From NCBI GenBank assembly GCA_051362555.1, contig CM120643.1:13676644-13740643 (forward strand): 64,000 bases of DNA. Direction: 5' to 3'. The DNA is from Lingula anatina. Taxonomy: Eukaryota; Animalia; Brachiopoda. Below the pieces are notes generated by a model. That model worked only from the letters and a program-made list of their open reading frames with translations. It searched no databases and was not told the DNA's origin. A program made the translations under genes and the position numbers. Below are positions 17,601-45,276 of this stretch, piece by piece (position 1 is the first letter of the stretch; every line of letters starts with the position of its first letter).

Positions 17601-18730
17601 CAATCCAACGCCAACGTGCAACAGGGGAAAGTCTGTCAGTGTATTACATAATATATGAAAGTGCGGTCAATATTAACAGTGTAAGACATCAGTTAAAGAG
17701 GAGGGGGTCTTACTATCTTTTGTTAAACGCGACTGTTATTATCTCTCGAACAAGCTTAAACCATGCCTTATACAATAGCGAGAAGCAAGTCGATTATTAT
17801 TAGAATTTATGTGTTGGGGGTGGTGGGCTCATGACCTAGTTAGATTCCACTTTACCAGAATAACACGATTCAGAGCTGGGCCTCTGAGGACGTGTATTTT
17901 TACAGCGCCCCTTGCAGAGTAGACAGCGGCTCTTAGAGTGTGTTAGGCTTTTCGCCTTTATTATGAGAACCACTTGTCTTTGATAGGAAGGTAGGTGTCT
18001 CGCCTGCCTGGTATGAGATACATAGTCATTTATATATGTAGGGTGCCCTGAAAAGGACATTCCGTGCTGAGTAGAGAGCGACTCTTAGAGTGTGTTAGGC
18101 TTCTCGCCTTTATTATAGGGAAAGAACGTCTTTATAAGAGAGTAGGTGTCTCGCCTACTTCGTATGAGATTTATAGATACCGATCTACACTGGGGGCCCT
18201 GAAAAGGGCATTTCGTGATTGGCACAATAGAGGCGTCTCGCCTGTCGAGGGAAGGGGGAGGGTGGACTGGTTGCAGAGTGTTGGGGGTGGTGGGCTCATG
18301 ACCTAGTTAGATTCCACTTTACCAGAATAACACGATTCAGAGCTGGGCCTCTGAGGACGTGTATTTTTACAGCGCCCCTTGCAGAGTAGACAGCGGCTCT
18401 TAGAGTGTGTTAGGCTTTTCGCCTTTATTATGAGAACCACTTGTCTTTGATAGGAAGGTAGGTGTCTCGCCTGCCTGGTATGAGATACATAGTCATTTAT
18501 ATATGTAGGGTGCCCTGAAAAGGACATTCCGTGCTGAGTAGAGAGCGACTCTTAGAGTGTGTTAGGCTTCTCGCCTTTATTATAGGGAAAGAACGTCTTT
18601 ATAAGAGAGTAGGTGTCTCGCCTACTTCGTATGAGATTTATAGATACCGATCTACACTGGGGGCCCTGAAAAGGGCATTTCGTGATTGGCACAATAGAGG
18701 CGTCTCGCCTGTCGAGGGAAGGGGGAGGGT

Positions 18731-18789
18731 GGACTGGTTGCAGAAAGCGCTTTTCGGTCAACAAGTGACCTTCATCAGCTGCAGAGTCC
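18731..18789 (-). ncRNA. Minimal type I hammerhead ribozyme (further minus-strand copies at 21304-21362, 23877-23935, 26450-26508, 32328-32386, 34901-34959; core-mutant copy at 29023-29081)
   Basis: Reverse complement reads GGACU-C-UGCAG CUGAUGA A GGUCA cuugu UGACC GAA AAGCGCUU U^ CUGCA-ACC-AGUCC. Confidence 0.88.
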
Positions 18790-19611
18790 GATTAATAAAA
18801 AAAAGGAAAAATTTAGGGACGTAGGGGCTGGTAAGCAAAGGTGTCTCGCCTTTGTTTAGTAAGTTTTCATCAATGGTGTCTCGCCATTGTGAATGATACG
18901 GGCCATCTCGGCTTTTAAGTATCATGCTTTGTTTAGTGATTTTCATCAATGGTGTCTCGCCATTGTGAATGATACGAGCCATCTCGGCTTTATAGTATCA
19001 TGCTTGATCACAAGTGTCTCGCTTGTGTCAAAGTGGACGGTATGAATCGAGCGTGTGAATGGCTCAAGAGTCGGAGGTCGACTGAGGATTTGTTGAAATT
19101 GTGTCAAATCGAGATCGAGGCCGCGATCTGATTGGTTGTTTCAGTTATGAGTTTTGATTGGCTGTTCTCGTGGTGTATCTTGATCCTATCTGTTTAGATG
19201 TAGTTTATTTGGTTTCATTTTTGGCAAGGTATTTTAACCTCGGATCAAATTTATTAGTATTCTTATGCTGTGCATTTGCGTGTTAACACTGAATTTTCAT
19301 TTGCTAGGATGGTCTGTATAGGTTTCGGGCACCTCTTTTAATTTTGGAAGGCTTTCTCCTTGTTGCTTATAAATAAACTGAGATATCATCTCGCCTTTTA
19401 TTTGCGATGTTTGTGTCTTATAAGTCGATTGTGCCCTGTAAGTGTTTAAAATTTGGTCTAAATGAGATTATGGCATTTTGCTTTATCTCCAGAATGACTT
19501 TTCTTTTCTTTATTGATTATTAATAAGTGTGGGGAAGGCATCTCGCCTTTTATTTGCATTATTGCGCTCTATTTGAACATTCAGGTTTAGCTTTTCCTGG
19601 TAGAAATGGGT

Positions 19612-19627
19612 GGCCCTGAAAAGGGCC
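19612..19627 (-). terminator. Histone-type mRNA 3' stem-loop downstream of the 209-aa ORF (present after all nine ORF copies)
   Basis: Reverse complement AAAAAC-GGCCCTTTTCAGGGCC-ACCCA. Confidence 0.8.
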
Positions 19628-19664
19628 GTTTTTTTCCGAGGACGTAGAAGCAGTGGCTTCTATT

Positions 19665-20294
19665 TTACAGTGTAGTTTTCTTGGCTGAGGTTAGTCTTCG
19701 TTTCACTTTGCTGGCTAGCACGCGGCTCTTCTTCTTGTCCTTCATGGCGAGAATGAGGAGTCTCATTTGCTCCATGATCTGGTTGTTTGTGGTCGTTGAA
19801 GTAGAGGGTTGGTTTCCTGGCGTGTACACGCCGTGGATGTTGAAGTGCTCTTCCGCCCTGGATTCCCTCTCTTCTGCCTTTGCTAAGCTTTCCTTAGCTT
19901 TGTCTACGAAAGCTTGCGTGTGGGCCTCGATCGCGGATTTAAGCTCTGTTGCGGCCTTGTCTTGTATGTTGATCATTGCTGCCAGAAGGATGTCGTCATC
20001 AGGGCACCCCCTGAAGTCTACACGGCATCTGACATGGTGGGCGTTGTTGCTGAGTTGTGTGAGCATGTGGTCTGCCCAGTCAGAGCAGCCTTTCAGGTAA
20101 GCTTTTGCTCTGACGACTTCGTCGTGGTAGGGGTTGCCGTTGACTCCTGGGGGGCCGGCTGTAATTGGCGCCGGTCTCTTGGGGATTCTCCCCCTGGGTG
20201 GTGCAGTGCTATGCCAGTTTTTTGATTCCATATTTCTAGGTTTTTTCCATTCCCTAGGAGATCGTTTTCCTCTGATACTTGTTTGATGATACAT
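19665..20294 (-). CDS. 209-aa element-encoded protein, copy 1 (basic N- and C-termini, helical core)
   Basis: Longest ORF of the unit, ATG start, same strand as the ribozyme, upstream CCAAT/TATA-like motifs, downstream histone stem-loop. Confidence 0.7.
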   Translation of the reverse strand: MYHQTSIRGKRSPREWKKPRNMESKNWHSTAPPRGRIPKRPAPITAGPPGVNGNPYHDEVVRAKAYLKGCSDWADHMLTQLSNNAHHVRCRVDFRGCPDDDILLAAMINIQDKAATELKSAIEAHTQAFVDKAKESLAKAEERESRAEEHFNIHGVYTPGNQPSTSTTTNNQIMEQMRLLILAMKDKKKSRVLASKVKRRLTSAKKTTL

Positions 20295-22237
20295 AGTGAG
20301 CGCGTTGTGAAAGAAATTGCTGTATTGCCAGACTTATGCCTTCCATTGAGAGTGTGCTGCTTTAAGTGTACACCCTGCTGAGGGGAGCACCGACGTTAAG
20401 GAGCTATGTGGTGTTGTGTGCTTCCCGTTGATTCTAAAAGTGTGTCATTAAGGAGCTTTGTGATTGGCTGATTGTCAAGCCATTGTCCGGTGTCTTATGT
20501 CTTGACTATTCAAGAATGTATGCACAGAATCCCCCGACAAGTGTAAATTTTGGTTTTAGTGGTTGTTTGTCAGGTTTTCTTGGTTATTACTATTGTTCCC
20601 TAGTGAGTAATAGGAACGTAGTTGTCTCGCCTACGTGGTATGTGATTATCATTATCATATGTCCGTGTATTATGGTACATAGATCATTTTGTTCCTTGTG
20701 ATCCGTAGGTTAAGGCGTGTTCCGATAAAGCAGAAAAAACCCCGTCACGCCAGTACCCAAAACACTAGCTACAAAGTAACCAGTGTTAAGGGACGGTTCC
20801 CGGTTCGGACAGTCCCACATTGCGGCCGGCCCCAGGGCCAAATAGCTTAAGTGTTGGGGGTGGTGGGCTCATGACCTAGTTAGATTCCACTTTACCAGAA
20901 TAACACGATTCAGAGCTGGGCCTCTGAGGACGTGTATTTTTACAGCGCCCCTTGCAGAGTAGACAGCGGCTCTTAGAGTGTGTTAGGCTTTTCGCCTTTA
21001 TTATGAGAACCACTTGTCTTTGATAGGAAGGTAGGTGTCTCGCCTGCCTGGTATGAGATACATAGTCATTTATATATGTAGGGTGCCCTGAAAAGGACAT
21101 TCCGTGCTGAGTAGAGAGCGACTCTTAGAGTGTGTTAGGCTTCTCGCCTTTATTATAGGGAAAGAACGTCTTTATAAGAGAGTAGGTGTCTCGCCTACTT
21201 CGTATGAGATTTATAGATACCGATCTACACTGGGGGCCCTGAAAAGGGCATTTCGTGATTGGCACAATAGAGGCGTCTCGCCTGTCGAGGGAAGGGGGAG
21301 GGTGGACTGGTTGCAGAAAGCGCTTTTCGGTCAACAAGTGACCTTCATCAGCTGCAGAGTCCGATTAATAAAAAAAAGGAAAAATTTAGGGACGTAGGGG
21401 CTGGTAAGCAAAGGTGTCTCGCCTTTGTTTAGTAAGTTTTCATCAATGGTGTCTCGCCATTGTGAATGATACGGGCCATCTCGGCTTTTAAGTATCATGC
21501 TTTGTTTAGTGATTTTCATCAATGGTGTCTCGCCATTGTGAATGATACGAGCCATCTCGGCTTTATAGTATCATGCTTGATCACAAGTGTCTCGCTTGTG
21601 TCAAAGTGGACGGTATGAATCGAGCGTGTGAATGGCTCAAGAGTCGGAGGTCGACTGAGGATTTGTTGAAATTGTGTCAAATCGAGATCGAGGCCGCGAT
21701 CTGATTGGTTGTTTCAGTTATGAGTTTTGATTGGCTGTTCTCGTGGTGTATCTTGATCCTATCTGTTTAGATGTAGTTTATTTGGTTTCATTTTTGGCAA
21801 GGTATTTTAACCTCGGATCAAATTTATTAGTATTCTTATGCTGTGCATTTGCGTGTTAACACTGAATTTTCATTTGCTAGGATGGTCTGTATAGGTTTCG
21901 GGCACCTCTTTTAATTTTGGAAGGCTTTCTCCTTGTTGCTTATAAATAAACTGAGATATCATCTCGCCTTTTATTTGCGATGTTTGTGTCTTATAAGTCG
22001 ATTGTGCCCTGTAAGTGTTTAAAATTTGGTCTAAATGAGATTATGGCATTTTGCTTTATCTCCAGAATGACTTTTCTTTTCTTTATTGATTATTAATAAG
22101 TGTGGGGAAGGCATCTCGCCTTTTATTTGCATTATTGCGCTCTATTTGAACATTCAGGTTTAGCTTTTCCTGGTAGAAATGGGTGGCCCTGAAAAGGGCC
22201 GTTTTTTTCCGAGGACGTAGAAGCAGTGGCTTCTATT

Positions 22238-22867
22238 TTACAGTGTAGTTTTCTTGGCTGAGGTTAGTCTTCGTTTCACTTTGCTGGCTAGCACGCGGCT
22301 CTTCTTCTTGTCCTTCATGGCGAGAATGAGGAGTCTCATTTGCTCCATGATCTGGTTGTTTGTGGTCGTTGAAGTAGAGGGTTGGTTTCCTGGCGTGTAC
22401 ACGCCGTGGATGTTGAAGTGCTCTTCCGCCCTGGATTCCCTCTCTTCTGCCTTTGCTAAGCTTTCCTTAGCTTTGTCTACGAAAGCTTGCGTGTGGGCCT
22501 CGATCGCGGATTTAAGCTCTGTTGCGGCCTTGTCTTGTATGTTGATCATTGCTGCCAGAAGGATGTCGTCATCAGGGCACCCCCTGAAGTCTACACGGCA
22601 TCTGACATGGTGGGCGTTGTTGCTGAGTTGTGTGAGCATGTGGTCTGCCCAGTCAGAGCAGCCTTTCAGGTAAGCTTTTGCTCTGACGACTTCGTCGTGG
22701 TAGGGGTTGCCGTTGACTCCTGGGGGGCCGGCTGTAATTGGCGCCGGTCTCTTGGGGATTCTCCCCCTGGGTGGTGCAGTGCTATGCCAGTTTTTTGATT
22801 CCATATTTCTAGGTTTTTTCCATTCCCTAGGAGATCGTTTTCCTCTGATACTTGTTTGATGATACAT
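22238..22867 (-). CDS. 209-aa element-encoded protein, copy 2
   Basis: Translation identical to copy 1. Confidence 0.7.
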   Translation of the reverse strand: MYHQTSIRGKRSPREWKKPRNMESKNWHSTAPPRGRIPKRPAPITAGPPGVNGNPYHDEVVRAKAYLKGCSDWADHMLTQLSNNAHHVRCRVDFRGCPDDDILLAAMINIQDKAATELKSAIEAHTQAFVDKAKESLAKAEERESRAEEHFNIHGVYTPGNQPSTSTTTNNQIMEQMRLLILAMKDKKKSRVLASKVKRRLTSAKKTTL

Positions 22868-24810
22868 AGTGAGCGCGTTGTGAAAGAAATTGCTGTATTG
22901 CCAGACTTATGCCTTCCATTGAGAGTGTGCTGCTTTAAGTATACACCCTGCTGAGGGGAGCACCGACGTTAAGGAGCTATGTGGTGTTGTGTGCTTCCCG
23001 TTGATTCTAAAAGTGTGTCATTAAGGAGCTTTGTGATTGGCTGATTGTCAAGCCATTGTCCGGTGTCTTATGTCTTGACTATTCAAGAATGTATGCACAG
23101 AATCCCCCGACAAGTGTAAATTTTGGTTTTAGTGGTTGTTTGTCAGGTTTTCTTGGTTATTACTATTGTTCCCTAGTGAGTAATAGGAACGTAGTTGTCT
23201 CGCCTACGTGGTATGTGATTATCATTATCATATGTCCGTGTATTATGGTACATAGATCATTTTGTTCCTTGTGATCCGTAGGTTAAGGCGTGTTCCGATA
23301 AAGCAGAAAAAACCCCGTCACGCCAGTACCCAAAACACTAGCTACAAAGTAACCAGTGTTAAGGGACGGTTCCCGGTTCGGACAGTCCCACATTGCGGCC
23401 GGCCCCAGGGCCAAATAGCTTAAGTGTTGGGGGTGGTGGGCTCATGACCTAGTTAGATTCCACTTTACCAGAATAACACGATTCAGAGCTGGGCCTCTGA
23501 GGACGTGTATTTTTACAGCGCCCCTTGCAGAGTAGACAGCGGCTCTTAGAGTGTGTTAGGCTTTTCGCCTTTATTATGAGAACCACTTGTCTTTGATAGG
23601 AAGGTAGGTGTCTCGCCTGCCTGGTATGAGATACATAGTCATTTATATATGTAGGGTGCCCTGAAAAGGACATTCCGTGCTGAGTAGAGAGCGACTCTTA
23701 GAGTGTGTTAGGCTTCTCGCCTTTATTATAGGGAAAGAACGTCTTTATAAGAGAGTAGGTGTCTCGCCTACTTCGTATGAGATTTATAGATACCGATCTA
23801 CACTGGGGGCCCTGAAAAGGGCATTTCGTGATTGGCACAATAGAGGCGTCTCGCCTGTCGAGGGAAGGGGGAGGGTGGACTGGTTGCAGAAAGCGCTTTT
23901 CGGTCAACAAGTGACCTTCATCAGCTGCAGAGTCCGATTAATAAAAAAAAGGAAAAATTTAGGGACGTAGGGGCTGGTAAGCAAAGGTGTCTCGCCTTTG
24001 TTTAGTAAGTTTTCATCAATGGTGTCTCGCCATTGTGAATGATACGGGCCATCTCGGCTTTTAAGTATCATGCTTTGTTTAGTGATTTTCATCAATGGTG
24101 TCTCGCCATTGTGAATGATACGAGCCATCTCGGCTTTATAGTATCATGCTTGATCACAAGTGTCTCGCTTGTGTCAAAGTGGACGGTATGAATCGAGCGT
24201 GTGAATGGCTCAAGAGTCGGAGGTCGACTGAGGATTTGTTGAAATTGTGTCAAATCGAGATCGAGGCCGCGATCTGATTGGTTGTTTCAGTTATGAGTTT
24301 TGATTGGCTGTTCTCGTGGTGTATCTTGATCCTATCTGTTTAGATGTAGTTTATTTGGTTTCATTTTTGGCAAGGTATTTTAACCTCGGATCAAATTTAT
24401 TAGTATTCTTATGCTGTGCATTTGCGTGTTAACACTGAATTTTCATTTGCTAGGATGGTCTGTATAGGTTTCGGGCACCTCTTTTAATTTTGGAAGGCTT
24501 TCTCCTTGTTGCTTATAAATAAACTGAGATATCATCTCGCCTTTTATTTGCGATGTTTGTGTCTTATAAGTCGATTGTGCCCTGTAAGTGTTTAAAATTT
24601 GGTCTAAATGAGATTATGGCATTTTGCTTTATCTCCAGAATGACTTTTCTTTTCTTTATTGATTATTAATAAGTGTGGGGAAGGCATCTCGCCTTTTATT
24701 TGCATTATTGCGCTCTATTTGAACATTCAGGTTTAGCTTTTCCTGGTAGAAATGGGTGGCCCTGAAAAGGGCCGTTTTTTTCCGAGGACGTAGAAGCAGT
24801 GGCTTCTATT

Positions 24811-25440
24811 TTACAGTGTAGTTTTCTTGGCTGAGGTTAGTCTTCGTTTCACTTTGCTGGCTAGCACGCGGCTCTTCTTCTTGTCCTTCATGGCGAGAAT
24901 GAGGAGTCTCATTTGCTCCATGATCTGGTTGTTTGTGGTCGTTGAAGTAGAGGGTTGGTTTCCTGGCGTGTACACGCCGTGGATGTTGAAGTGCTCTTCC
25001 GCCCTGGATTCCCTCTCTTCTGCCTTTGCTAAGCTTTCCTTAGCTTTGTCTACGAAAGCTTGCGTGTGGGCCTCGATCGCGGATTTAAGCTCTGTTGCGG
25101 CCTTGTCTTGTATGTTGATCATTGCTGCCAGAAGGATGTCGTCATCAGGGCACCCCCTGAAGTCTACACGGCATCTGACATGGTGGGCGTTGTTGCTGAG
25201 TTGTGTGAGCATGTGGTCTGCCCAGTCAGAGCAGCCTTTCAGGTAAGCTTTTGCTCTGACGACTTCGTCGTGGTAGGGGTTGCCGTTGACTCCTGGGGGG
25301 CCGGCTGTAATTGGCGCCGGTCTCTTGGGGATTCTCCCCCTGGGTGGTGCAGTGCTATGCCAGTTTTTTGATTCCATATTTCTAGGTTTTTTCCATTCCC
25401 TAGGAGATCGTTTTCCTCTGATACTTGTTTGATGATACAT
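24811..25440 (-). CDS. 209-aa element-encoded protein, copy 3
   Basis: Translation identical to copy 1. Confidence 0.7.
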   Translation of the reverse strand: MYHQTSIRGKRSPREWKKPRNMESKNWHSTAPPRGRIPKRPAPITAGPPGVNGNPYHDEVVRAKAYLKGCSDWADHMLTQLSNNAHHVRCRVDFRGCPDDDILLAAMINIQDKAATELKSAIEAHTQAFVDKAKESLAKAEERESRAEEHFNIHGVYTPGNQPSTSTTTNNQIMEQMRLLILAMKDKKKSRVLASKVKRRLTSAKKTTL

Positions 25441-27383
25441 AGTGAGCGCGTTGTGAAAGAAATTGCTGTATTGCCAGACTTATGCCTTCCATTGAGAGTG
25501 TGCTGCTTTAAGTATACACCCTGCTGAGGGGAGCACCGACGTTAAGGAGCTATGTGGTGTTGTGTGCTTCCCGTTGATTCTAAAAGTGTGTCATTAAGGA
25601 GCTTTGTGATTGGCTGATTGTCAAGCCATTGTCCGGTGTCTTATGTCTTGACTATTCAAGAATGTATGCACAGAATCCCCCGACAAGTGTAAATTTTGGT
25701 TTTAGTGGTTGTTTGTCAGGTTTTCTTGGTTATTACTATTGTTCCCTAGTGAGTAATAGGAACGTAGTTGTCTCGCCTACGTGGTATGTGATTATCATTA
25801 TCATATGTCCGTGTATTATGGTACATAGATCATTTTGTTCCTTGTGATCCGTAGGTTAAGGCGTGTTCCGATAAAGCAGAAAAAACCCCGTCACGCCAGT
25901 ACCCAAAACACTAGCTACAAAGTAACCAGTGTTAAGGGACGGTTCCCGGTTCGGACAGTCCCACATTGCGGCCGGCCCCAGGGCCAAATAGCTTAAGTGT
26001 TGGGGGTGGTGGGCTCATGACCTAGTTAGATTCCACTTTACCAGAATAACACGATTCAGAGCTGGGCCTCTGAGGACGTGTATTTTTACAGCGCCCCTTG
26101 CAGAGTAGACAGCGGCTCTTAGAGTGTGTTAGGCTTTTCGCCTTTATTATGAGAACCACTTGTCTTTGATAGGAAGGTAGGTGTCTCGCCTGCCTGGTAT
26201 GAGATACATAGTCATTTATATATGTAGGGTGCCCTGAAAAGGACATTCCGTGCTGAGTAGAGAGCGACTCTTAGAGTGTGTTAGGCTTCTCGCCTTTATT
26301 ATAGGGAAAGAACGTCTTTATAAGAGAGTAGGTGTCTCGCCTACTTCGTATGAGATTTATAGATACCGATCTACACTGGGGGCCCTGAAAAGGGCATTTC
26401 GTGATTGGCACAATAGAGGCGTCTCGCCTGTCGAGGGAAGGGGGAGGGTGGACTGGTTGCAGAAAGCGCTTTTCGGTCAACAAGTGACCTTCATCAGCTG
26501 CAGAGTCCGATTAATAAGAAAAAGGAAAAATTTAGGGACGTAGGGGCTGGTAAGCAAAGGTGTCTCGCCTTTGTTTAGTAAGTTTTCATCAATGGTGTCT
26601 CGCCATTGTGAATGATACGGGCCATCTCGGCTTTTAAGTATCATGCTTTGTTTAGTGATTTTCATCAATGGTGTCTCGCCATTGTGAATGATACGAGCCA
26701 TCTCGGCTTTATAGTATCATGCTTGATCACAAGTGTCTCGCTTGTGTCAAAGTGGACGGTATGAATCGAGCGTGTGAATGGCTCAAGAGTCGGAGGTCGA
26801 CTGAGGATTTGTTGAAATTGTGTCAAATCGAGATCGAGGCCGCGATCTGATTGGTTGTTTCAGTTATGAGTTTTGATTGGCTGTTCTCGTGGTGTATCTT
26901 GATCCTATCTGTTTAGATGTAGTTTATTTGGTTTCATTTTTGGCAAGGTATTTTAACCTCGGATCAAATTTATTAGTATTCTTATGCTGTGCATTTGCGT
27001 GTTAACACTGAATTTTCATTTGCTAGGATGGTCTGTATAGGTTTCGGGCACCTCTTTTAATTTTGGAAGGCTTTCTCCTTGTTGCTTATAAATAAACTGA
27101 GATATCATCTCGCCTTTTATTTGCGATGTTTGTGTCTTATAAGTCGATTGTGCCCTGTAAGTGTTTAAAATTTGGTCTAAATGAGATTATGGCATTTTGC
27201 TTTATCTCCAGAATGACTTTTCTTTTCTTTATTGATTATTAATAAGTGTGGGGAAGGCATCTCGCCTTTTATTTGCATTATTGCGCTCTATTTGAACATT
27301 CAGGTTTAGCTTTTCCTGGTAGAAATGGGTGGCCCTGAAAAGGGCCGTTTTTTTCCGAGGACGTAGAAGCAGTGGCTTCTATT

Positions 27384-28013
27384 TTACAGTGTAGTTTTCT
27401 TGGCTGAGGTTAGTCTTCGTTTCACTTTGCTGGCTAGCACGCGGCTCTTCTTCTTGTCCTTCATGGCGAGAATGAGGAGTCTCATTTGCTCCATGATCTG
27501 GTTGTTTGTGGTCGTTGAAGTAGAGGGTTGGTTTCCTGGCGTGTACACGCCGTGGATGTTGAAGTGCTCTTCCGCCCTGGATTCCCTCTCTTCTGCCTTT
27601 GCTAAGCTTTCCTTAGCTTTGTCTACGAAAGCTTGCGTGTGGGCCTCGATCGCGGATTTAAGCTCTGTTGCGGCCTTGTCTTGTATGTTGATCATTGCTG
27701 CCAGAAGGATGTCGTCATCAGGGCACCCCCTGAAGTCTACACGGCATCTGACATGGTGGGCGTTGTTGCTGAGTTGTGTGAGCATGTGGTCTGCCCAGTC
27801 AGAGCAGCCTTTCAGGTAAGCTTTTGCTCTGACGACTTCGTCGTGGTAGGGGTTGCCGTTGACTCCTGGGGGGCCGGCTGTAATTGGCGCCGGTCTCTTG
27901 GGGATTCTCCCCCTGGGTGGTGCAGTGCTATGCCAGTTTTTTGATTCCATATTTCTAGGTTTTTTCCATTCCCTAGGAGATCGTTTTCCTCTGATACTTG
28001 TTTGATGATACAT
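27384..28013 (-). CDS. 209-aa element-encoded protein, copy 4
   Basis: Translation identical to copy 1. Confidence 0.7.
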   Translation of the reverse strand: MYHQTSIRGKRSPREWKKPRNMESKNWHSTAPPRGRIPKRPAPITAGPPGVNGNPYHDEVVRAKAYLKGCSDWADHMLTQLSNNAHHVRCRVDFRGCPDDDILLAAMINIQDKAATELKSAIEAHTQAFVDKAKESLAKAEERESRAEEHFNIHGVYTPGNQPSTSTTTNNQIMEQMRLLILAMKDKKKSRVLASKVKRRLTSAKKTTL

Positions 28014-30919: not shown

Positions 30920-30956
30920 AATAGAAGCCACTGCTTCTACGTCCTCGGAAAAAAAC

Positions 30957-30995
30957 GGCCCTTTTCAGGGCCACCCATTTCTACCAGGAAAAGCT
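30957..30995 (+). terminator. Histone-type 3' stem-loop plus candidate purine-rich histone downstream element (also at 38846 and 41419)
   Basis: GGCCCTTTTCAGGGCC at 30957-30972, ACCCA at 30973-30977, CAGGAAAAGCT at 30985-30995. Confidence 0.8.
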
Positions 30996-31794: not shown

Positions 31795-31853
31795 GGACTC
31801 TGCAGCTGATGAAGGTCACTTGTTGACCGAAAAGCGCTTTCTGCAACCAGTCC
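31795..31853 (+). ncRNA. Minimal type I hammerhead ribozyme (further plus-strand copies at 39684-39742, 42257-42315, 43041-43099)
   Basis: Stem I TGCAG(31801-05)/CTGCA(31841-45) extended by GGACT/AGTCC; core CTGATGA 31806-12; stem II GGTCA/TGACC; GAAA; palindromic stem III AAGCGCTT; predicted cut after 31840. Confidence 0.88.
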
Positions 31854-33261: not shown

Positions 33262-33891
33262 TTACAGTGTAGTTTTCTTGGCTGAGGTTAGTCTTCGTTT
33301 CACTTTGCTGGCTAGCACGCGGCTCTTCTTCTTGTCCTTCATGGCGAGAATGAGGAGTCTCATTTGCTCCATGATCTGGTTGTTTGTGGTCGTTGAAGTA
33401 GAGGGTTGGTTTCCTGGCGTGTACACGCCGTGGATGTTGAAGTGCTCTTCCGCCCTGGATTCCCTCTCTTCTGCCTTTGCTAAGCTTTCCTTAGCTTTGT
33501 CTACGAAAGCTTGCGTGTGGGCCTCGATCGCGGATTTAAGCTCTGTTGCGGCCTTGTCTTGTATGTTGATCATTGCTGCCAGAAGGATGTCGTCATCAGG
33601 GCACCCCCTGAAGTCTACACGGCATCTGACATGGTGGGCGTTGTTGCTGAGTTGTGTGAGCATGTGGTCTGCCCAGTCAGAGCAGCCTTTCAGGTAAGCT
33701 TTTGCTCTGACGACTTCGTCGTGGTAGGGGTTGCCGTTGACTCCTGGGGGGCCGGCTGTAATTGGCGCCGGTCTCTTGGGGATTCTCCCCCTGGGTGGTG
33801 CAGTGCTATGCCAGTTTTTTGATTCCATATTTCTAGGTTTTTTCCATTCCCTAGGAGATCGTTTTCCTCTGATACTTGTTTGATGATACAT
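33262..33891 (-). CDS. 209-aa element-encoded protein, copy 6
   Basis: Translation identical to copy 1. Confidence 0.7.
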   Translation of the reverse strand: MYHQTSIRGKRSPREWKKPRNMESKNWHSTAPPRGRIPKRPAPITAGPPGVNGNPYHDEVVRAKAYLKGCSDWADHMLTQLSNNAHHVRCRVDFRGCPDDDILLAAMINIQDKAATELKSAIEAHTQAFVDKAKESLAKAEERESRAEEHFNIHGVYTPGNQPSTSTTTNNQIMEQMRLLILAMKDKKKSRVLASKVKRRLTSAKKTTL

Positions 33892-35834
33892 AGTGAGCGC
33901 GTTGTGAAAGAAATTGCTGTATTGCCAGACTTATGCCTTCCATTGAGAGTGTGCTGCTTTAAGTATACACCCTGCTGAGGGGAGCACCGACGTTAAGGAG
34001 CTATGTGGTGTTGTGTGCTTCCCGTTGATTCTAAAAGTGTGTCATTAAGGAGCTTTGTGATTGGCTGATTGTCAAGCCATTGTCCGGTGTCTTATGTCTT
34101 GACTATTCAAGAATGTATGCACAGAATCCCCCGACAAGTGTAAATTTTGGTTTTAGTGGTTGTTTGTCAGGTTTTCTTGGTTATTACTATTGTTCCCTAG
34201 TGAGTAATAGGAACGTAGTTGTCTCGCCTACGTGGTATGTGATTATCATTATCATATGTCCGTGTATTATGGTACATAGATCATTTTGTTCCTTGTGATC
34301 CGTAGGTTAAGGCGTGTTCCGATAAAGCAGAAAAAACCCCGTCACGCCAGTACCCAAAACACTAGCTACAAAGTAACCAGTGTTAAGGGACGGTTCCCGG
34401 TTCGGACAGTCCCACATTGCGGCCGGCCCCAGGGCCAAATAGCTTAAGTGTTGGGGGTGGTGGGCTCATGACCTAGTTAGATTCCACTTTACCAGAATAA
34501 CACGATTCAGAGCTGGGCCTCTGAGGACGTGTATTTTTACAGCGCCCCTTGCAGAGTAGACAGCGGCTCTTAGAGTGTGTTAGGCTTTTCGCCTTTATTA
34601 TGAGAACCACTTGTCTTTGATAGGAAGGTAGGTGTCTCGCCTGCCTGGTATGAGATACATAGTCATTTATATATGTAGGGTGCCCTGAAAAGGACATTCC
34701 GTGCTGAGTAGAGAGCGACTCTTAGAGTGTGTTAGGCTTCTCGCCTTTATTATAGGGAAAGAACGTCTTTATAAGAGAGTAGGTGTCTCGCCTACTTCGT
34801 ATGAGATTTATAGATACCGATCTACACTGGGGGCCCTGAAAAGGGCATTTCGTGATTGGCACAATAGAGGCGTCTCGCCTGTCGAGGGAAGGGGGAGGGT
34901 GGACTGGTTGCAGAAAGCGCTTTTCGGTCAACAAGTGACCTTCATCAGCTGCAGAGTCCGATTAATAAAAAAAAGGAAAAATTTAGGGACGTAGGGGCTG
35001 GTAAGCAAAGGTGTCTCGCCTTTGTTTAGTAAGTTTTCATCAATGGTGTCTCGCCATTGTGAATGATACGGGCCATCTCGGCTTTTAAGTATCATGCTTT
35101 GTTTAGTGATTTTCATCAATGGTGTCTCGCCATTGTGAATGATACGAGCCATCTCGGCTTTATAGTATCATGCTTGATCACAAGTGTCTCGCTTGTGTCA
35201 AAGTGGACGGTATGAATCGAGCGTGTGAATGGCTCAAGAGTCGGAGGTCGACTGAGGATTTGTTGAAATTGTGTCAAATCGAGATCGAGGCCGCGATCTG
35301 ATTGGTTGTTTCAGTTATGAGTTTTGATTGGCTGTTCTCGTGGTGTATCTTGATCCTATCTGTTTAGATGTAGTTTATTTGGTTTCATTTTTGGCAAGGT
35401 ATTTTAACCTCGGATCAAATTTATTAGTATTCTTATGCTGTGCATTTGCGTGTTAACACTGAATTTTCATTTGCTAGGATGGTCTGTATAGGTTTCGGGC
35501 ACCTCTTTTAATTTTGGAAGGCTTTCTCCTTGTTGCTTATAAATAAACTGAGATATCATCTCGCCTTTTATTTGCGATGTTTGTGTCTTATAAGTCGATT
35601 GTGCCCTGTAAGTGTTTAAAATTTGGTCTAAATGAGATTATGGCATTTTGCTTTATCTCCAGAATGACTTTTCTTTTCTTTATTGATTATTAATAAGTGT
35701 GGGGAAGGCATCTCGCCTTTTATTTGCATTATTGCGCTCTATTTGAACATTCAGGTTTAGCTTTTCCTGGTAGAAATGGGTGGCCCTGAAAAGGGCCGTT
35801 TTTTTCCGAGGACGTAGAAGCAGTGGCTTCTATT

Positions 35835-36464
35835 TTACAGTGTAGTTTTCTTGGCTGAGGTTAGTCTTCGTTTCACTTTGCTGGCTAGCACGCGGCTCTT
35901 CTTCTTGTCCTTCATGGCGAGAATGAGGAGTCTCATTTGCTCCATGATCTGGTTGTTTGTGGTCGTTGAAGTAGAGGGTTGGTTTCCTGGCGTGTACACG
36001 CCGTGGATGTTGAAGTGCTCTTCCGCCCTGGATTCCCTCTCTTCTGCCTTTGCTAAGCTTTCCTTAGCTTTGTCTACGAAAGCTTGCGTGTGGGCCTCGA
36101 TCGCGGATTTAAGCTCTGTTGCGGCCTTGTCTTGTATGTTGATCATTGCTGCCAGAAGGATGTCGTCATCAGGGCACCCCCTGAAGTCTACACGGCATCT
36201 GACATGGTGGGCGTTGTTGCTGAGTTGTGTGAGCATGTGGTCTGCCCAGTCAGAGCAGCCTTTCAGGTAAGCTTTTGCTCTGACGACTTCGTCGTGGTAG
36301 GGGTTGCCGTTGACTCCTGGGGGGCCGGCTGTAATTGGCGCCGGTCTCTTGGGGATTCTCCCCCTGGGTGGTGCAGTGCTATGCCAGTTTTTTGATTCCA
36401 TATTTCTAGGTTTTTTCCATTCCCTAGGAGATCGTTTTCCTCTGATACTTGTTTGATGATACAT
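35835..36464 (-). CDS. 209-aa element-encoded protein, copy 7
   Basis: Translation identical to copy 1. Confidence 0.7.
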   Translation of the reverse strand: MYHQTSIRGKRSPREWKKPRNMESKNWHSTAPPRGRIPKRPAPITAGPPGVNGNPYHDEVVRAKAYLKGCSDWADHMLTQLSNNAHHVRCRVDFRGCPDDDILLAAMINIQDKAATELKSAIEAHTQAFVDKAKESLAKAEERESRAEEHFNIHGVYTPGNQPSTSTTTNNQIMEQMRLLILAMKDKKKSRVLASKVKRRLTSAKKTTL

Positions 36465-38003
36465 AGTGAGCGCGTTGTGAAAGAAATTGCTGTATTGCCA
36501 GACTTATGCCTTCCATTGAGAGTGTGCTGCTTTAAGTATACACCCTGCTGAGGGGAGCACCGACGTTAAGGAGCTATGTGGTGTTGTGTGCTTCCCGTTG
36601 ATTCTAAAAGTGTGTCATTAAGGAGCTTTGTGATTGGCTGATTGTCAAGCCATTGTCCGGTGTCTTATGTCTTGACTATTCAAGAATGTATGCACAGAAT
36701 CCCCCGACAAGTGTAAATTTTGGTTTTAGTGGTTGTTTGTCAGGTTTTCTTGGTTATTACTATTGTTCCCTAGTGAGTAATAGGAACGTAGTTGTCTCGC
36801 CTACGTGGTATGTGATTATCATTATCATATGTCCGTGTATTATGGTACATAGATCATTTTGTTCCTTGTGATCCGTAGGTTAAGGCGTGTTCCGATAAAG
36901 CAGAAAAAACCCCGTCACGCCAGTACCCAAAACACTAGCTACAAAGTAACCAGTGTTAAGGGACGGTTCCCGGTTCGGACAGTCCCACATTGCGGCCGGC
37001 CCCAGGGCCAAATAGCTTAAGTGTTGGGGGTGGTGGGCTCATGACCTAGTTAGATTCCACTTTACCAGAATAACACGATTCAGAGCTGGGCCTCTGAGGA
37101 CGTGTATTTTTACAGCGCCCCTTGCAGAGTAGACAGCGGCTCTTAGAGTGTGTTAGGCTTTTCGCCTTTATTATGAGAACCACTTGTCTTTGATAGGAAG
37201 GTAGGTGTCTCGCCTGCCTGGTATGAGATACATAGTCATTTATATATGTAGGGTGCCCTGAAAAGGACATTCCGTGCTGAGTAGAGAGCGACTCTTAGAG
37301 TGTGTTAGGCTTCTCGCCTTTATTATAGGGAAAGAACGTCTTTATAAGAGAGTAGGTGTCTCGCAGCACGGAATGTCCTTTTCAGGGCACCCTACATATA
37401 TAAATGACTATGTATCTCATACCAGGCAGGCGAGACACCTACCTTCCTATCAAAGACAAGTGGTTCTCATAATAAAGGCGAAAAGCCTAACACACTCTAA
37501 GAGCCGCTGTCTACTCTGCAAGGGGCGCTGTAAAAATACACGTCCTCAGAGGCCCAGCTCTGAATCGTGTTATTCTGGTAAAGTGGAATCTAACTAGGTC
37601 ATGAGCCCACCACCCCCAACACTTAAGCTATTTGGCCCTGGGGCCGGCCGCAATGTGGGACTGTCCGAACCGGGAACCGTCCCTTAACACTGGTTACTTT
37701 GTAGCTAGTGTTTTGGGTACTGGCGTGACGGGGTTTTTTCTGCTTTATCGGAACACGCCTTAACCTACGGATCACAAGGAACAAAATGATCTATGTACCA
37801 TAATACACGGACATATGATAATGATAATCACATACCACGTAGGCGAGACAACTACGTTCCTATTACTCACTAGGGAACAATAGTAATAACCAAGAAAACC
37901 TGACAAACAACCACTAAAACCAAAATTTACACTTGTCGGGGGATTCTGTGCATACATTCTTGAATAGTCAAGACATAAGACACCGGACAATGGCTTGACA
38001 ATC

Positions 38004-38112
38004 AGCCAATCACAAAGCTCCTTAATGACACACTTTTAGAATCAACGGGAAGCACACAACACCACATAGCTCCTTAACGTCGGTGCTCCCCTCAGCAGGG
38101 TGTATACTTAAA
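38004..38112 (+). promoter_or_regulatory. Candidate Pol II promoter of the element ORF (CCAAT box plus TATA-like motif)
   Basis: AGCCAATCA at 38004-38012, AGCTCCTTAA twice, TATACTTAAA at 38103-38112, about 70 nt before the ATG at 38179; motif match only. Confidence 0.4.
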
Positions 38113-38178
38113 GCAGCACACTCTCAATGGAAGGCATAAGTCTGGCAATACAGCAATTTCTTTCACAACGCGCTCACT

Positions 38179-38808
38179 ATGTATCATCAAACAAGTATCA
38201 GAGGAAAACGATCTCCTAGGGAATGGAAAAAACCTAGAAATATGGAATCAAAAAACTGGCATAGCACTGCACCACCCAGGGGGAGAATCCCCAAGAGACC
38301 GGCGCCAATTACAGCCGGCCCCCCAGGAGTCAACGGCAACCCCTACCACGACGAAGTCGTCAGAGCAAAAGCTTACCTGAAAGGCTGCTCTGACTGGGCA
38401 GACCACATGCTCACACAACTCAGCAACAACGCCCACCATGTCAGATGCCGTGTAGACTTCAGGGGGTGCCCTGATGACGACATCCTTCTGGCAGCAATGA
38501 TCAACATACAAGACAAGGCCGCAACAGAGCTTAAATCCGCGATCGAGGCCCACACGCAAGCTTTCGTAGACAAAGCTAAGGAAAGCTTAGCAAAGGCAGA
38601 AGAGAGGGAATCCAGGGCGGAAGAGCACTTCAACATCCACGGCGTGTACACGCCAGGAAACCAACCCTCTACTTCAACGACCACAAACAACCAGATCATG
38701 GAGCAAATGAGACTCCTCATTCTCGCCATGAAGGACAAGAAGAAGAGCCGCGTGCTAGCCAGCAAAGTGAAACGAAGACTAACCTCAGCCAAGAAAACTA
38801 CACTGTAA
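38179..38808 (+). CDS. 209-aa element-encoded protein, copy 8
   Basis: Translation identical to copy 1. Confidence 0.7.
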   Translation: MYHQTSIRGKRSPREWKKPRNMESKNWHSTAPPRGRIPKRPAPITAGPPGVNGNPYHDEVVRAKAYLKGCSDWADHMLTQLSNNAHHVRCRVDFRGCPDDDILLAAMINIQDKAATELKSAIEAHTQAFVDKAKESLAKAEERESRAEEHFNIHGVYTPGNQPSTSTTTNNQIMEQMRLLILAMKDKKKSRVLASKVKRRLTSAKKTTL

Positions 38809-40751
38809 AATAGAAGCCACTGCTTCTACGTCCTCGGAAAAAAACGGCCCTTTTCAGGGCCACCCATTTCTACCAGGAAAAGCTAAACCTGAATGTTCAA
38901 ATAGAGCGCAATAATGCAAATAAAAGGCGAGATGCCTTCCCCACACTTATTAATAATCAATAAAGAAAAGAAAAGTCATTCTGGAGATAAAGCAAAATGC
39001 CATAATCTCATTTAGACCAAATTTTAAACACTTACAGGGCACAATCGACTTATAAGACACAAACATCGCAAATAAAAGGCGAGATGATATCTCAGTTTAT
39101 TTATAAGCAACAAGGAGAAAGCCTTCCAAAATTAAAAGAGGTGCCCGAAACCTATACAGACCATCCTAGCAAATGAAAATTCAGTGTTAACACGCAAATG
39201 CACAGCATAAGAATACTAATAAATTTGATCCGAGGTTAAAATACCTTGCCAAAAATGAAACCAAATAAACTACATCTAAACAGATAGGATCAAGATACAC
39301 CACGAGAACAGCCAATCAAAACTCATAACTGAAACAACCAATCAGATCGCGGCCTCGATCTCGATTTGACACAATTTCAACAAATCCTCAGTCGACCTCC
39401 GACTCTTGAGCCATTCACACGCTCGATTCATACCGTCCACTTTGACACAAGCGAGACACTTGTGATCAAGCATGATACTATAAAGCCGAGATGGCTCGTA
39501 TCATTCACAATGGCGAGACACCATTGATGAAAATCACTAAACAAAGCATGATACTTAAAAGCCGAGATGGCCCGTATCATTCACAATGGCGAGACACCAT
39601 TGATGAAAACTTACTAAACAAAGGCGAGACACCTTTGCTTACCAGCCCCTACGTCCCTAAATTTTTCCTTTTTTTTATTAATCGGACTCTGCAGCTGATG
39701 AAGGTCACTTGTTGACCGAAAAGCGCTTTCTGCAACCAGTCCACCCTCCCCCTTCCCTCGACAGGCGAGACGCCTCTATTGTGCCAATCACGAAATGCCC
39801 TTTTCAGGGCCCCCAGTGTAGATCGGTATCTATAAATCTCATACGAAGTAGGCGAGACACCTACTCTCTTATAAAGACGTTCTTTCCCTATAATAAAGGC
39901 GAGAAGCCTAACACACTCTAAGAGTCGCTCTCTACTCAGCACGGAATGTCCTTTTCAGGGCACCCTACATATATAAATGACTATGTATCTCATACCAGGC
40001 AGGCGAGACACCTACCTTCCTATCAAAGACAAGTGGTTCTCATAATAAAGGCGAAAAGCCTAACACACTCTAAGAGCCGCTGTCTACTCTGCAAGGGGCG
40101 CTGTAAAAATACACGTCCTCAGAGGCCCAGCTCTGAATCGTGTTATTCTGGTAAAGTGGAATCTAACTAGGTCATGAGCCCACCACCCCCAACACTTAAG
40201 CTATTTGGCCCTGGGGCCGGCCGCAATGTGGGACTGTCCGAACCGGGAACCGTCCCTTAACACTGGTTACTTTGTAGCTAGTGTTTTGGGTACTGGCGTG
40301 ACGGGGTTTTTTCTGCTTTATCGGAACACGCCTTAACCTACGGATCACAAGGAACAAAATGATCTATGTACCATAATACACGGACATATGATAATGATAA
40401 TCACATACCACGTAGGCGAGACAACTACGTTCCTATTACTCACTAGGGAACAATAGTAATAACCAAGAAAACCTGACAAACAACCACTAAAACCAAAATT
40501 TACACTTGTCGGGGGATTCTGTGCATACATTCTTGAATAGTCAAGACATAAGACACCGGACAATGGCTTGACAATCAGCCAATCACAAAGCTCCTTAATG
40601 ACACACTTTTAGAATCAACGGGAAGCACACAACACCACATAGCTCCTTAACGTCGGTGCTCCCCTCAGCAGGGTGTATACTTAAAGCAGCACACTCTCAA
40701 TGGAAGGCATAAGTCTGGCAATACAGCAATTTCTTTCACAACGCGCTCACT

Positions 40752-41381
40752 ATGTATCATCAAACAAGTATCAGAGGAAAACGATCTCCTAGGGAATGGA
40801 AAAAACCTAGAAATATGGAATCAAAAAACTGGCATAGCACTGCACCACCCAGGGGGAGAATCCCCAAGAGACCGGCGCCAATTACAGCCGGCCCCCCAGG
40901 AGTCAACGGCAACCCCTACCACGACGAAGTCGTCAGAGCAAAAGCTTACCTGAAAGGCTGCTCTGACTGGGCAGACCACATGCTCACACAACTCAGCAAC
41001 AACGCCCACCATGTCAGATGCCGTGTAGACTTCAGGGGGTGCCCTGATGACGACATCCTTCTGGCAGCAATGATCAACATACAAGACAAGGCCGCAACAG
41101 AGCTTAAATCCGCGATCGAGGCCCACACGCAAGCTTTCGTAGACAAAGCTAAGGAAAGCTTAGCAAAGGCAGAAGAGAGGGAATCCAGGGCGGAAGAGCA
41201 CTTCAACATCCACGGCGTGTACACGCCAGGAAACCAACCCTCTACTTCAACGACCACAAACAACCAGATCATGGAGCAAATGAGACTCCTCATTCTCGCC
41301 ATGAAGGACAAGAAGAAGAGCCGCGTGCTAGCCAGCAAAGTGAAACGAAGACTAACCTCAGCCAAGAAAACTACACTGTAA
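40752..41381 (+). CDS. 209-aa element-encoded protein, copy 9
   Basis: Translation identical to copy 1. Confidence 0.7.
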   Translation: MYHQTSIRGKRSPREWKKPRNMESKNWHSTAPPRGRIPKRPAPITAGPPGVNGNPYHDEVVRAKAYLKGCSDWADHMLTQLSNNAHHVRCRVDFRGCPDDDILLAAMINIQDKAATELKSAIEAHTQAFVDKAKESLAKAEERESRAEEHFNIHGVYTPGNQPSTSTTTNNQIMEQMRLLILAMKDKKKSRVLASKVKRRLTSAKKTTL

Positions 41382-44300
41382 AATAGAAGCCACTGCTTCT
41401 ACGTCCTCGGAAAAAAACGGCCCTTTTCAGGGCCACCCATTTCTACCAGGAAAAGCTAAACCTGAATGTTCAAATAGAGCGCAATAATGCAAATAAAAGG
41501 CGAGATGCCTTCCCCACACTTATTAATAATCAATAAAGAAAAGAAAAGTCATTCTGGAGATAAAGCAAAATGCCATAATCTCATTTAGACCAAATTTTAA
41601 ACACTTACAGGGCACAATCGACTTATAAGACACAAACATCGCAAATAAAAGGCGAGATGATATCTCAGTTTATTTATAAGCAACAAGGAGAAAGCCTTCC
41701 AAAATTAAAAGAGGTGCCCGAAACCTATACAGACCATCCTAGCAAATGAAAATTCAGTGTTAACACGCAAATGCACAGCATAAGAATACTAATAAATTTG
41801 ATCCGAGGTTAAAATACCTTGCCAAAAATGAAACCAAATAAACTACATCTAAACAGATAGGATCAAGATACACCACGAGAACAGCCAATCAAAACTCATA
41901 ACTGAAACAACCAATCAGATCGCGGCCTCGATCTCGATTTGACACAATTTCAACAAATCCTCAGTCGACCTCCGACTCTTGAGCCATTCACACGCTCGAT
42001 TCATACCGTCCACTTTGACACAAGCGAGACACTTGTGATCAAGCATGATACTATAAAGCCGAGATGGCTCGTATCATTCACAATGGCGAGACACCATTGA
42101 TGAAAATCACTAAACAAAGCATGATACTTAAAAGCCGAGATGGCCCGTATCATTCACAATGGCGAGACACCATTGATGAAAACTTACTAAACAAAGGCGA
42201 GACACCTTTGCTTACCAGCCCCTACGTCCCTAAATTTTTCCTTTTTTTTATTAATCGGACTCTGCAGCTGATGAAGGTCACTTGTTGACCGAAAAGCGCT
42301 TTCTGCAACCAGTCCACCCTCCCCCTTCCCTCGACAGGCGAGACGCCTCTATTGTGCCAATCACGAAATGCCCTTTTCAGGGCCCCCAGTGTAGATCGGT
42401 ATCTATAAATCTCATACGAAGTAGGCGAGACACCTACTCTCTTATAAAGACGTTCTTTCCCTATAATAAAGGCGAGAAGCCTAACACACTCTAAGAGTCG
42501 CTCTCTACTCAGCACGGAATGTCCTTTTCAGGGCACCCTACATATATAAATGACTATGTATCTCATACCAGGCAGGCGAGACACCTACCTTCCTATCAAA
42601 GACAAGTGGTTCTCATAATAAAGGCGAAAAGCCTAACACACTCTAAGAGCCGCTGTCTACTCTGCAAGGGGCGCTGTAAAAATACACGTCCTCAGAGGCC
42701 CAGCTCTGAATCGTGTTATTCTGGTAAAGTGGAATCTAACTAGGTCATGAGCCCACCACCCCCAACACATTTCACACGCTCGATTCATACCGTCCACTTT
42801 GACACAAGCGAGACACTTGTGATCAAGCATGATACTATAAAGCCGAGATGGCTCGTATCATTCACAATGGCGAGACACCATTGATGAAAATCACTAAACA
42901 AAGCATGATACTTAAAAGCCGAGATGGCCCGTATCATTCACAATGGCGAGACACCATTGATGAAAACTTACTAAACAAAGGCGAGACACCTTTGCTTACC
43001 AGCCCCTACGTCCCTAAATTTTTCCTTTTTTTTATTAATCGGACTCTGCAGCTGATGAAGGTCACTTGTTGACCGAAAAGCGCTTTCTGCAACCAGTCCA
43101 CCCTCCCCCTTCCCTCGACAGGCGAGACGCCTCTATTGTGCCAATCACGAAATGCCCTTTTCAGGGCCCCCAGTGTAGATCGGTATCTATAAATCTCATA
43201 CGAAGTAGGCGAGACACCTACTCTCTTATAAAGACGTTCTTTCCCTATAATAAAGGCGAGAAGCCTAACACACTCTAAGAGTCGCTCTCTACTCAGCACG
43301 GAATGTCCTTTTCAGGGCACCCTACATATATAAATGACTATGTATCTCATACCAGGCAGGCGAGACACCTACCTTCCTATCAAAGACAAGTGGTTCTCAT
43401 AATAAAGGCGAAAAGCCTAACACACTCTAAGAGCCGCTGTCTACTCTGCAAGGGGCGCTGTAAAAATACACGTCCTCAGAGGCCCAGCTCTGAATCGTGT
43501 TATTCTGGTAAAGTGGAATCTAACTAGGTCATGAGCCCACCACCCCCAACACAATGTTCAGCTGCTGTTTCATAGGAAAATTTTGCTCCCGGGACATCAT
43601 CCTCGGTCAATCTTACGAAGGAAACCGTTGGTGTCCCTTCCTTCGCCATTGAAATTCACCGTGCAGACTGCTGTTCTTGTCCGACTTCCGCGTTCAGCAG
43701 TGAACTCATTAATATGCATGAGATAGTAGTGACGCAATAGGTTGCTTCTCGCTATTACTGTGTCTCTGGCTGTGCAGAAACGGCATGTCGAACATATTTT
43801 GCTACAGTTACAAACAGGGCAAACTAGCGACTTGTTCTAGATCGCTCTAGTAAGAAAGCATAAGTGCGGCGCCCGGGCAAAACAATCAACTACCCGGTAT
43901 AACATTCATATCTTAGCGTTTACATATGACGCGCAAAGAGCTAAGTACATATGACGCGCAATGAGCTAAGCAATTAGCCTTAACAAAGTGGTCCGTTTTA
44001 AAACAACAACGAGAAAAAAGAACGCCTTGTCATAGTTATGAGACAAATCGCTTGCAACGTGCAACAAGGGGGATGGCTGACACTGTGGTCACACTACATG
44101 TTTATGTACGTTGAATTAACAGTCTTAGACATCGCCCAAAGAGGCAGGACTTACTATAGCCCTCAATCTATTGTTAAACGCGATCATTATCTGTTCTCAT
44201 GCAACCTTAAACAAAACCTAAGCAATAAGATTGTTAAATCAGATAAGTGATGTAAAATCATATAGGAAATTTACGTTAACGACGGAGACTTTCATTCGCA

Positions 44301-45108: not shown

Positions 45109-45276
45109 CAAGCCCGTAGCCAGCAATTTCAAAGGGGGGGGGATCCTTTTCTGACAAAGTGGACCTTTTACCGGAAAATCTCCATGTAATTATGTCAAAT
45201 TTTACCCAGAGTGGACTTTTTTTCAGCAAAAGGGGGGTCTTTCGAACCTCCCGAACTCCCCCTGGCTGCGGGCCTG
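45109..45276. mobile_element. Short GC-rich MITE inserted in a (TTTA)n tract
   Basis: Imperfect TIRs caagcccgtagccag / ctggctgcgggcctg, internal G and C runs, TTTA repeats on both sides. Confidence 0.7.

Follow-up and report, generated by a model that had tools for sequence, protein, structure and literature searches.

A tandem array of a probably protein-coding hammerhead unit

We analysed a 64,000-nucleotide (nt) stretch of the Lingula anatina genome (assembly GCA_051362555.1, contig CM120643.1, positions 13,676,644 to 13,740,643 of the forward strand), hereafter the window, in which positions 17811-43552 are occupied by a 25.7-kb array of a 2,573-nt unit. Alignment of the reference unit (37623-40195) to the window by BLASTN recovered the eight full and seven partial copies reported in a preliminary description of this DNA, and the array amounts to 10.0 unit equivalents in total. 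An open reading frame (ORF), a stem-loop of the type that ends histone mRNAs, an array of hairpins with a conserved loop and a hammerhead ribozyme core, previously described as lying on one strand, were all found again on the same strand, each above chance in resampling or count controls. The features of the array and of the reference unit are as follows.

17811..43552, unstranded: whole insertion, seven segments in two outward-facing arms (BLASTN and exact parse)
37623..40195, plus: reference unit of 2,573 nt, with its fixed end (putative start of reverse transcription) at base 2573
38004..38114, plus: boxes 5' of the ORF that we take to be CCAAT and TATA-like; predicted promoter
38179..38808, plus: ORF, 209 aa (188 aa from Met22 at 38242), with a predicted helical hairpin at residues 57-154 and a basic C-terminus
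38846..38861, plus: histone-type stem-loop 1 (Rfam), followed by ACCCA and a purine-rich run
39439..39644, plus: four of the seven CGAGACA-loop hairpins, including a 76-nt duplication
loops at 37844, 39853 and 40004, plus: the other three CGAGACA-loop hairpins
39684..39742, plus: type I hammerhead motif (our own descriptor), predicted cut between 39729 and 39730
39796..39811, plus: histone-type stem-loop 2, inside a 151-nt duplication
39947..39962, plus: histone-type stem-loop 3
40177..40195, plus: AC-rich terminus (from the sequence), whose last 17 of 17 bases are A or C

The whole array holds four single-base differences, each private to one copy. Because only these four bases differ, the insertion is very young or its copies were made from one template. 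One of the four changes, at 29044 in a partial copy, falls in the conserved GAAA of the ribozyme. The earlier statement that the unit has no reverse transcriptase (RT) or GIY-YIG motif also held, since neither [YF]xDD nor GIY-YIG occurs in its six frames. The combination of RT and GIY-YIG in one ORF that marks autonomous, endonuclease-containing (EN+) Penelope-like elements (PLEs) is thus absent from the unit.

Segments, junctions and insertion target

Exact parsing divided the array into seven segments, which can be read directly from the DNA.

17811..18277, minus: segment 1, unit 2107/2108-2573, 467 nt; starts, within a 1-nt ambiguity, at the predicted hammerhead cut
18278..29709, minus: segment 2, 11,432 nt, 4.44 uninterrupted units with three single-copy base changes
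29716..30200, minus: segment 3, unit 2089-2573, 485 nt
30201..31869, plus: segment 4, inverted piece, unit 468-2136, 1,669 nt; the sole segment not ending at 2573
31875..37364, minus: segment 5, two units and unit 2230-2573, 5,490 nt; closes the left arm
37365..42768, plus: segment 6, unit 2316-2573 and two units, 5,404 nt; head-to-head with the left arm
42771..43552, plus: segment 7, unit 1792-2573, 782 nt; outer end of the right arm
17767..17810, unstranded: left part of the MITE-like target, with a 15-nt inverted repeat at 17767-17781
43553..43756, unstranded: right part of the MITE-like target, with the inverted repeat at 43742-43756; repetitive in four of four runs

The left arm consists of antisense segments of 467, 11,432, 485 and 5,490 nt and one sense piece of 1,669 nt, and the right arm of those of 782 and 5,404 nt; at 37364/37365 the arms are joined head-to-head, sharing 1 nt of microhomology. 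Six of the seven segments, including both outer ends, terminate at unit base 2573, which is preceded by 17 A or C bases out of 17. The base following each of these fixed ends is A or T in six of six cases, and the unit's own continuation is matched for 1-3 nt beyond the end in three of the six, as microhomology. One of the seven free 5' ends lies at the predicted ribozyme cut (p=0.008 under uniformly distributed ends). This combination of a fixed AC-rich end, 5' truncation, inverted arms and one 5' end at the cut bears out the earlier proposal of a non-autonomous element with the insertion anatomy of a PLE. A palindromic TTATAA is located at 31869-31874, between two diverging segments, and is a possible point of self-priming.

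The array interrupts an inverted-repeat element resembling a miniature inverted-repeat transposable element (MITE), which measures 243 bp once the array is removed. Since the array splits one such element, it is the product of a single insertion. No direct repeat of 1-29 nt was found at the array ends; a target-site duplication is an optional feature in PLEs. Right-half contigs of sequencing runs X1, X8 and X10 lose their match at 43553, and a 241-nt contig of X10 has 35 letters before that point, none of them on the unit's end. Sequence linking the outer left to the outer right flank without the array is present in runs X8, X9 and X10. These joins are other copies of the repeat, not the orthologous empty locus, and show that the two flanks belong together. 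The inverted repeat of the target (17767-17781, 43742-43756) contains GCGAGAAGC, which two hairpins of the unit contain as well.

Hammerhead motif

The hammerhead motif has a CUGAUGA/GAAA core, a 5-bp stem II, a palindromic helix III and a stem I of 5 bp that is extended over an internal loop. Minimal type I hammerheads had been named as a feature of PLEs; our descriptor recognises a type I core here, and the ribozyme is not strictly minimal. The descriptor matched once on the sense strand, and not on the antisense strand, in the flanks or in 3000 resampled units. The motif displays two traits of PLE hammerheads (PMC4209133), namely the palindromic helix III and a base bulged out between positions 9 and 10.1. 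Among 121 loci matching the hammerhead pattern none had a BLAST match to the unit, pattern searches for related loci yielded no confirmed case among 101 metagenome and 78 viral matches, and three more specific element patterns returned no loci.

Histone-type stem-loops and CGAGACA hairpins

The Rfam model Histone3 (RF00032) matched the first stem-loop at 38 bits (gathering threshold 34) in nine of the nine ORF-bearing copies. As in the 3' end of replication-dependent histone mRNAs, this stem-loop has a six-pair stem, a UUUC loop, an A-rich 5' flank and a downstream ACCCA with a purine-rich run, and it comes soon after a stop codon, the stem beginning 37 nt past the ORF stop. The histone-type stem-loop that had been proposed is thus present; it is not single, however, since two more hairpins sharing its core are found 3' to the ribozyme. 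The unit differs from histone mRNAs in these two hairpins outside any ORF and in an ORF that does not encode a histone. We lean towards the reading that the ORF mRNA uses the histone 3'-end pathway.

Seven hairpins share the loop CGAGACA on differing stems, five of them with six contiguous pairs, and the stem pairing of the five independent hairpins was equalled by 1-2 of 120 permutations. GGCGAGA occurs in the unit 10 times in sense and once in antisense, against 0.1 expected, and not at all in 38,258 nt of flank. By window z-scores there is little global RNA structure, and the folds of the isolated hammerhead and hairpins are unexceptional (z -0.9 to -1.8). AATAAA occurs seven times per unit; it stands immediately 5' of four GGCGA hairpins, at unit positions 1297, 1449, 2270 and 2422 (window +37622), and these hairpins could mask poly(A) signals.

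The ORF and its protein

The 209-aa ORF is present in nine copies. No Markov-resampled unit out of 1000 contained an ORF of that length, and eight of 1000 reached 188 aa, the length from Met22, where translation may start. Among 1.84 billion representatives the sole homologue was P0001, a protein of 170 aa with 32% identity (E 6.2e-7), encoded on one contig of 1,420 nt; the alignment begins near Met22. The ORF matched no Pfam family and no PDB sequence, had one weak match only in PHROGs (E 0.05), and a two-sequence profile of the ORF and P0001 recovered P0001 alone among 2,210 candidates. The ESM Atlas gave no usable match for either protein, with low recognition values. AlphaFold predicts a helical hairpin, with a predicted local distance difference test score of 57 for the ORF alone and 65 with P0001. 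With this fold Foldseek returned no match at E<=0.001 in the PDB or viral libraries, and the best VIA match (Z 9.0, root-mean-square deviation 3.6, 102 aligned) is a generic helical hairpin. The coiled coil and the basic ends are weakly consistent with a protein that may act for the element as an RNA chaperone or adaptor.

A diverged subfamily in run X6 allowed the substitutions listed for the ORF to be compared: after Met22, five of seven are silent (0.22 expected, p=0.007). None of the 12 indels listed falls in the ORF (p=0.034), and the two ORF contigs listed have 0 and 2 gaps vs 3-11 in five mostly non-coding contigs. Taken from the sequence, these figures indicate that the ORF is probably under selection.

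Distribution of the family in DNA and RNA data

The unit or parts of it are present in ten DNA runs from four studies, and four of these runs may be its source; reads and contigs were compared in detail for eight of the 20 runs listed. In X6, a different sample from another study, 30 of 30 unit bins are covered, by a piece of 328 nt that matches the unit exactly and by a deeper form of about 90% identity, both of which continue across the junction from base 2573 to base 1. The unit thus belongs to a family with subfamilies that is present in other samples, and is not a one-off. In all four non-source DNA runs (X6, X8, X9 and X10) the summed depth of contigs is highest at the ribozyme and terminus, those bins being several-fold deeper than the unit body, although this depth is not a copy number. 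The peaks indicate that these modules are shared with many relatives. Many relatives are also suggested by joints in which hairpin array and ribozyme are spaced differently, and by a form that has the 151-nt repeat only once. In X1, possibly a source run, a 2,520-nt contig has both matched ends implying a path through 2573 to 1, at a depth of 30.6 vs 2.4-3.3 for most flank pieces.

No RNA run is among those listed in the run index as carrying the unit. Two of the three RNA libraries examined (X11, X14, X17) are poly(A)-selected. Such libraries lose both circles and histone-type messages, so the RNA data neither show nor exclude either. A circle closed at the ribozyme cut, moreover, leaves no distinguishing junction. 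The X11 reads, 34 of them at >=99% identity, cover 28 of 30 bins, and three cross from 2573 to 1; X14 has no reads at 99%.

Relation to known elements

The unit has much in common with the non-LTR (long terminal repeat) retrozymes of animals: tandem units with one type I hammerhead each (here by our own descriptor, not Rfam), GC below 50%, no RT, a proposed PLE partner and proposed synthesis of more-than-unit cDNA from circles (PMC7229834; bioRxiv 10.64898/2026.07.22.740005; PMC7761336). In the available parts of these reports, metazoan retrozyme units measure 51-972 bp (survey period limit 1,000), are non-coding and highly self-paired, and are said to be without promoters and conserved motifs. 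The present unit differs in its length of 2,573 nt, promoter-like boxes, conserved-loop hairpins, histone-type hairpins and ORF, the last with signs of selection, and so lies outside a class described as non-coding and under about 1 kb.

Like EN+ PLEs such as Poseidon PAc, the array displays partial tandems, inversions, 5' truncation, an internal AC-rich RT start, an AT-rich target and a bulged palindromic hammerhead (PMC11167929; PMC4209133; PMC8557442). The partial tandem and inverted structure, 5' truncation and fixed internal RT start by which PLE-mobilised insertions can be recognised (PMC11167929, PMC8557442) are all found here. Unlike these PLEs the unit has no RT or GIY-YIG, and its ORF follows the ribozyme at a distance of about 1 kb and the fixed end at 556 nt, whereas the ORF of PAc overlaps both (PMC11167929).

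Three published systems contain parts of this architecture, and the preliminary description of a new system was therefore an overstatement. The Chlamys elements such as MRC1 are non-autonomous PLE derivatives in multicopy head-to-tail insertions, but they have no canonical hammerheads, and the accessible text mentions no ORF or histone hairpin (PMC8557442). Terminons of bdelloid rotifers have hammerhead repeats, accessory coiled-coil ORFs and a C/A-rich 3' end, but they are telomeric, reach 40 kb and encode their own RT (PMC6431247), whereas the unit has one ORF and no RT and occupies an internal site, in a MITE-like repeat among TRP-like genes. In Adineta vaga a coding sequence unrelated to RT was moved in trans between PLE termini; this was a one-off host gene with a target duplication, unlike a multimerising family with subfamilies (PMC3846280). 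A full-text literature search, which covered few subscription papers and neither Dfam, Repbase nor the supplements that may list longer retrozymes, found no element combining these parts, histone-type 3' end included. The part of bioRxiv 10.64898/2026.10.14.759114 that was available makes no mention of transposons.

Model of the insertion and alternative explanations

Mobilisation of the unit as a non-autonomous element by a PLE is very probable. Our preferred reading, which we consider fairly likely as a whole, is a single very young insertion of an RT-less element by a PLE RT-endonuclease acting in trans on ribozyme-cut, probably circularised RNA, with the ORF likely translated from a short mRNA whose predicted 3' end is at the histone-type hairpin. 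A circular template is, on its own, somewhat favoured. The active element PAc cuts both strands of AT-rich DNA, and an AC-rich stem-loop inside its RNA is where reverse transcription begins (PMC11167929); such a mechanism predicts two arms facing outward and a fixed end. Ribozyme cutting, ligation and more-than-unit cDNA were proposed by Cervera and de la Pena (PMC4209133).

For the RNA and protein steps we infer the following order. Tandem copies would be transcribed from the CCAAT/TATA-like promoter. Cutting of the SLBP/U7 type past hairpin 1 would give a non-polyadenylated mRNA, and read-through RNA would reach the hammerhead. Multimers would be cleaved by paired hammerheads to monomers whose first base is unit 2108; segment 1 may be the one genomic footprint of this, and some monomers would be ligated into circles. 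The PLE enzyme would cut both strands of the AT-rich target, and the junctions suggest that cDNA was made from both DNA ends, starting at the AC-rich base 2573. The RT may run off a linear monomer after 466 nt (compare segment 1), or circle up to 4.4 times to give multimers (segments 2, 5 and 6), and then restart at base 2573 on another template. The arms are joined head-to-head with 1 nt of microhomology and without target duplication.

Several observations weigh against this reading. Truncations cluster close to the fixed end, which makes the uniform-end probability given above generous; limited to the last 800 nt, it is about 0.02. Segment 4 departs from the fixed start, and the internal junctions of the array are absent from the joints listed (15 of 25). 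No RT is found in the window except an RVT_1 fragment of a long interspersed nuclear element (LINE). Rfam hammerhead models gave no match at E<=5, and the cut triplet is UUU, which is unusual, the consensus being RUH (PMC7936874). Eight of nine Xenopus retrozymes showed no in vitro cleavage, and ribozyme cleavage is dispensable for insertion of PAc (PMC11167929). RNA reads are few, with 110 (X11), 78 (X17) and 39 (X14) reads in 9.5-12.4 million drawn from 6-25% of each run, and most of the ORF is covered only by reads with the first mate on plus, which is antisense in the usual stranded protocol. In the three RNA runs no pile-up of read starts or ends was observed, and read depth at the histone-type hairpin is low. 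The three substitutions listed before Met22 all alter the protein, and the selection statistics cover 10 listed substitutions, from a table with 336 further rows, and 12 of 44 indel rows, as chosen by the software; because they cover only these, the selection signal is suggestive only.

The ORF might have no role in mobility and be either a mini-gene captured from the host or what is left of a PLE N-terminus, carried by a PLE-derived retrozyme. We regard such a passenger as rather unlikely. Sense reads of the ORF do not stand out, an unrelated host gene was moved in trans by PLE termini (PMC3846280), and a long helix is predicted for the N-terminus of PAc (PMC11167929). Against this, the histone-type hairpin occurs three times in the unit, two of them away from the ORF, frame and silent-site bias are kept in a subfamily about 10% diverged, and weak searches of 92 candidates near it in length and 593 longer ones found no relative of longer or similar length. 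What we take to be an N-terminal motif of PLEs, HxxFLxxC, has only a loose and unconfirmed resemblance to AYLKGC.

The main rival concerns the template, and leaves the element PLE-dependent: what was copied could have been a long RNA that read through an older tandem array and was left uncut, with no circle and only occasional cutting by the ribozyme. Identical copies and the reads across 2573 to 1 (three in X11) fit either template, and for PAc the model is a multi-copy mRNA, uncut RNA being the main substrate (PMC11167929). However, an RNA of more than 11.4 kb must pass four to five uncut ribozymes and also the AATAAA signals, seven per unit; with a palindromic helix III, cutting is favoured in multimers (PMC4209133), and segment 1 suggests that cutting occurs. 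We therefore consider this explanation unlikely.

It is very improbable that the unit is a circular RNA replicon, viroid-like or deltavirus-like, that became endogenised. Circular permutation, a ribozyme and a single basic coiled-coil ORF of about 200 aa would suit it, but whereas deltaviruses are rods of 1.5-1.7 kb with ribozymes in both polarities, the unit has a ribozyme in one polarity only and a predicted circular fold that is branched, with 53% of bases paired. Pfam and viral-structure searches were without match, and the family is abundant in genomic DNA of several studies while its RNA is scarce. Equally improbable is amplification of DNA by satellite expansion, re-integration of circular DNA or break-induced replication; such processes can, as is generally known, yield long perfect tandems and microhomology joins, but give no account of six of seven segments ending at one base or of an end at the ribozyme cut. 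An assembly or amplification artefact inflating a short array, which the near-identical copies and the lack of inverted internal junctions among the joints listed could suggest, is the least probable of all, given the deep X1 contig that wraps from 2573 to 1, the matched inverted repeats across the array and the non-random junctions.

Surroundings of the array

The array lies in animal-like DNA with four intronless ORFs for ankyrin/TRP-like channels and a LINE RT fragment.

5914-7803, 12597-14429, 47730-49535 and 52912-54783: four intronless ankyrin/Ion_trans (TRP-like) ORFs of 601-629 aa
3-1229: RVT_1 and ALKBH8_N LINE fragment, presumably Rex1/L2-like, open to the window edge and followed by an ATT repeat at 1320-1345

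The first two TRP-like ORFs lie within a duplication of about 7 kb with 79-86% identity. A short repeat at 45111-45265, with TTTA runs on either side, has very high depth in all four runs compared. The region 57492-63117 is CpG-poor and contains tandem repeats with periods of 160, 58 and shorter.

Implications for retrozymes and PLEs

Animal retrozymes appear in the available parts of the literature as small, non-coding elements, and that PLEs mobilise them is proposed there but not demonstrated. The insertion described here preserves steps of the process in DNA, namely a fixed RT start, an end at a ribozyme cut and an 11.4-kb multimer, and the unit offers a defined template for rolling-circle reverse transcription with a PLE enzyme. 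The element is likely a variant of the PLE-dependent retrozymes that is coding and uses the histone 3'-end pathway. More tentatively, it may represent a protein-coding circular-RNA satellite family of PLEs, with its own conserved protein and a non-polyadenylated mRNA of the SLBP/U7 type, in which U7 versus ribozyme cutting would decide between message and genome and expression would be coupled to S phase or to oocytes. The histone 3'-end pathway is described, in the sources available, as confined to replication-dependent histone mRNAs; if the ORF message does end at the hairpin, it would be a non-histone client of that pathway from a mobile element, and would also tie retrozymes to coding circular RNA replicons. 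What would be new is a protein-coding form of a jumping RNA so far described as non-coding, an ORF-containing unit with a histone-type 3' end.

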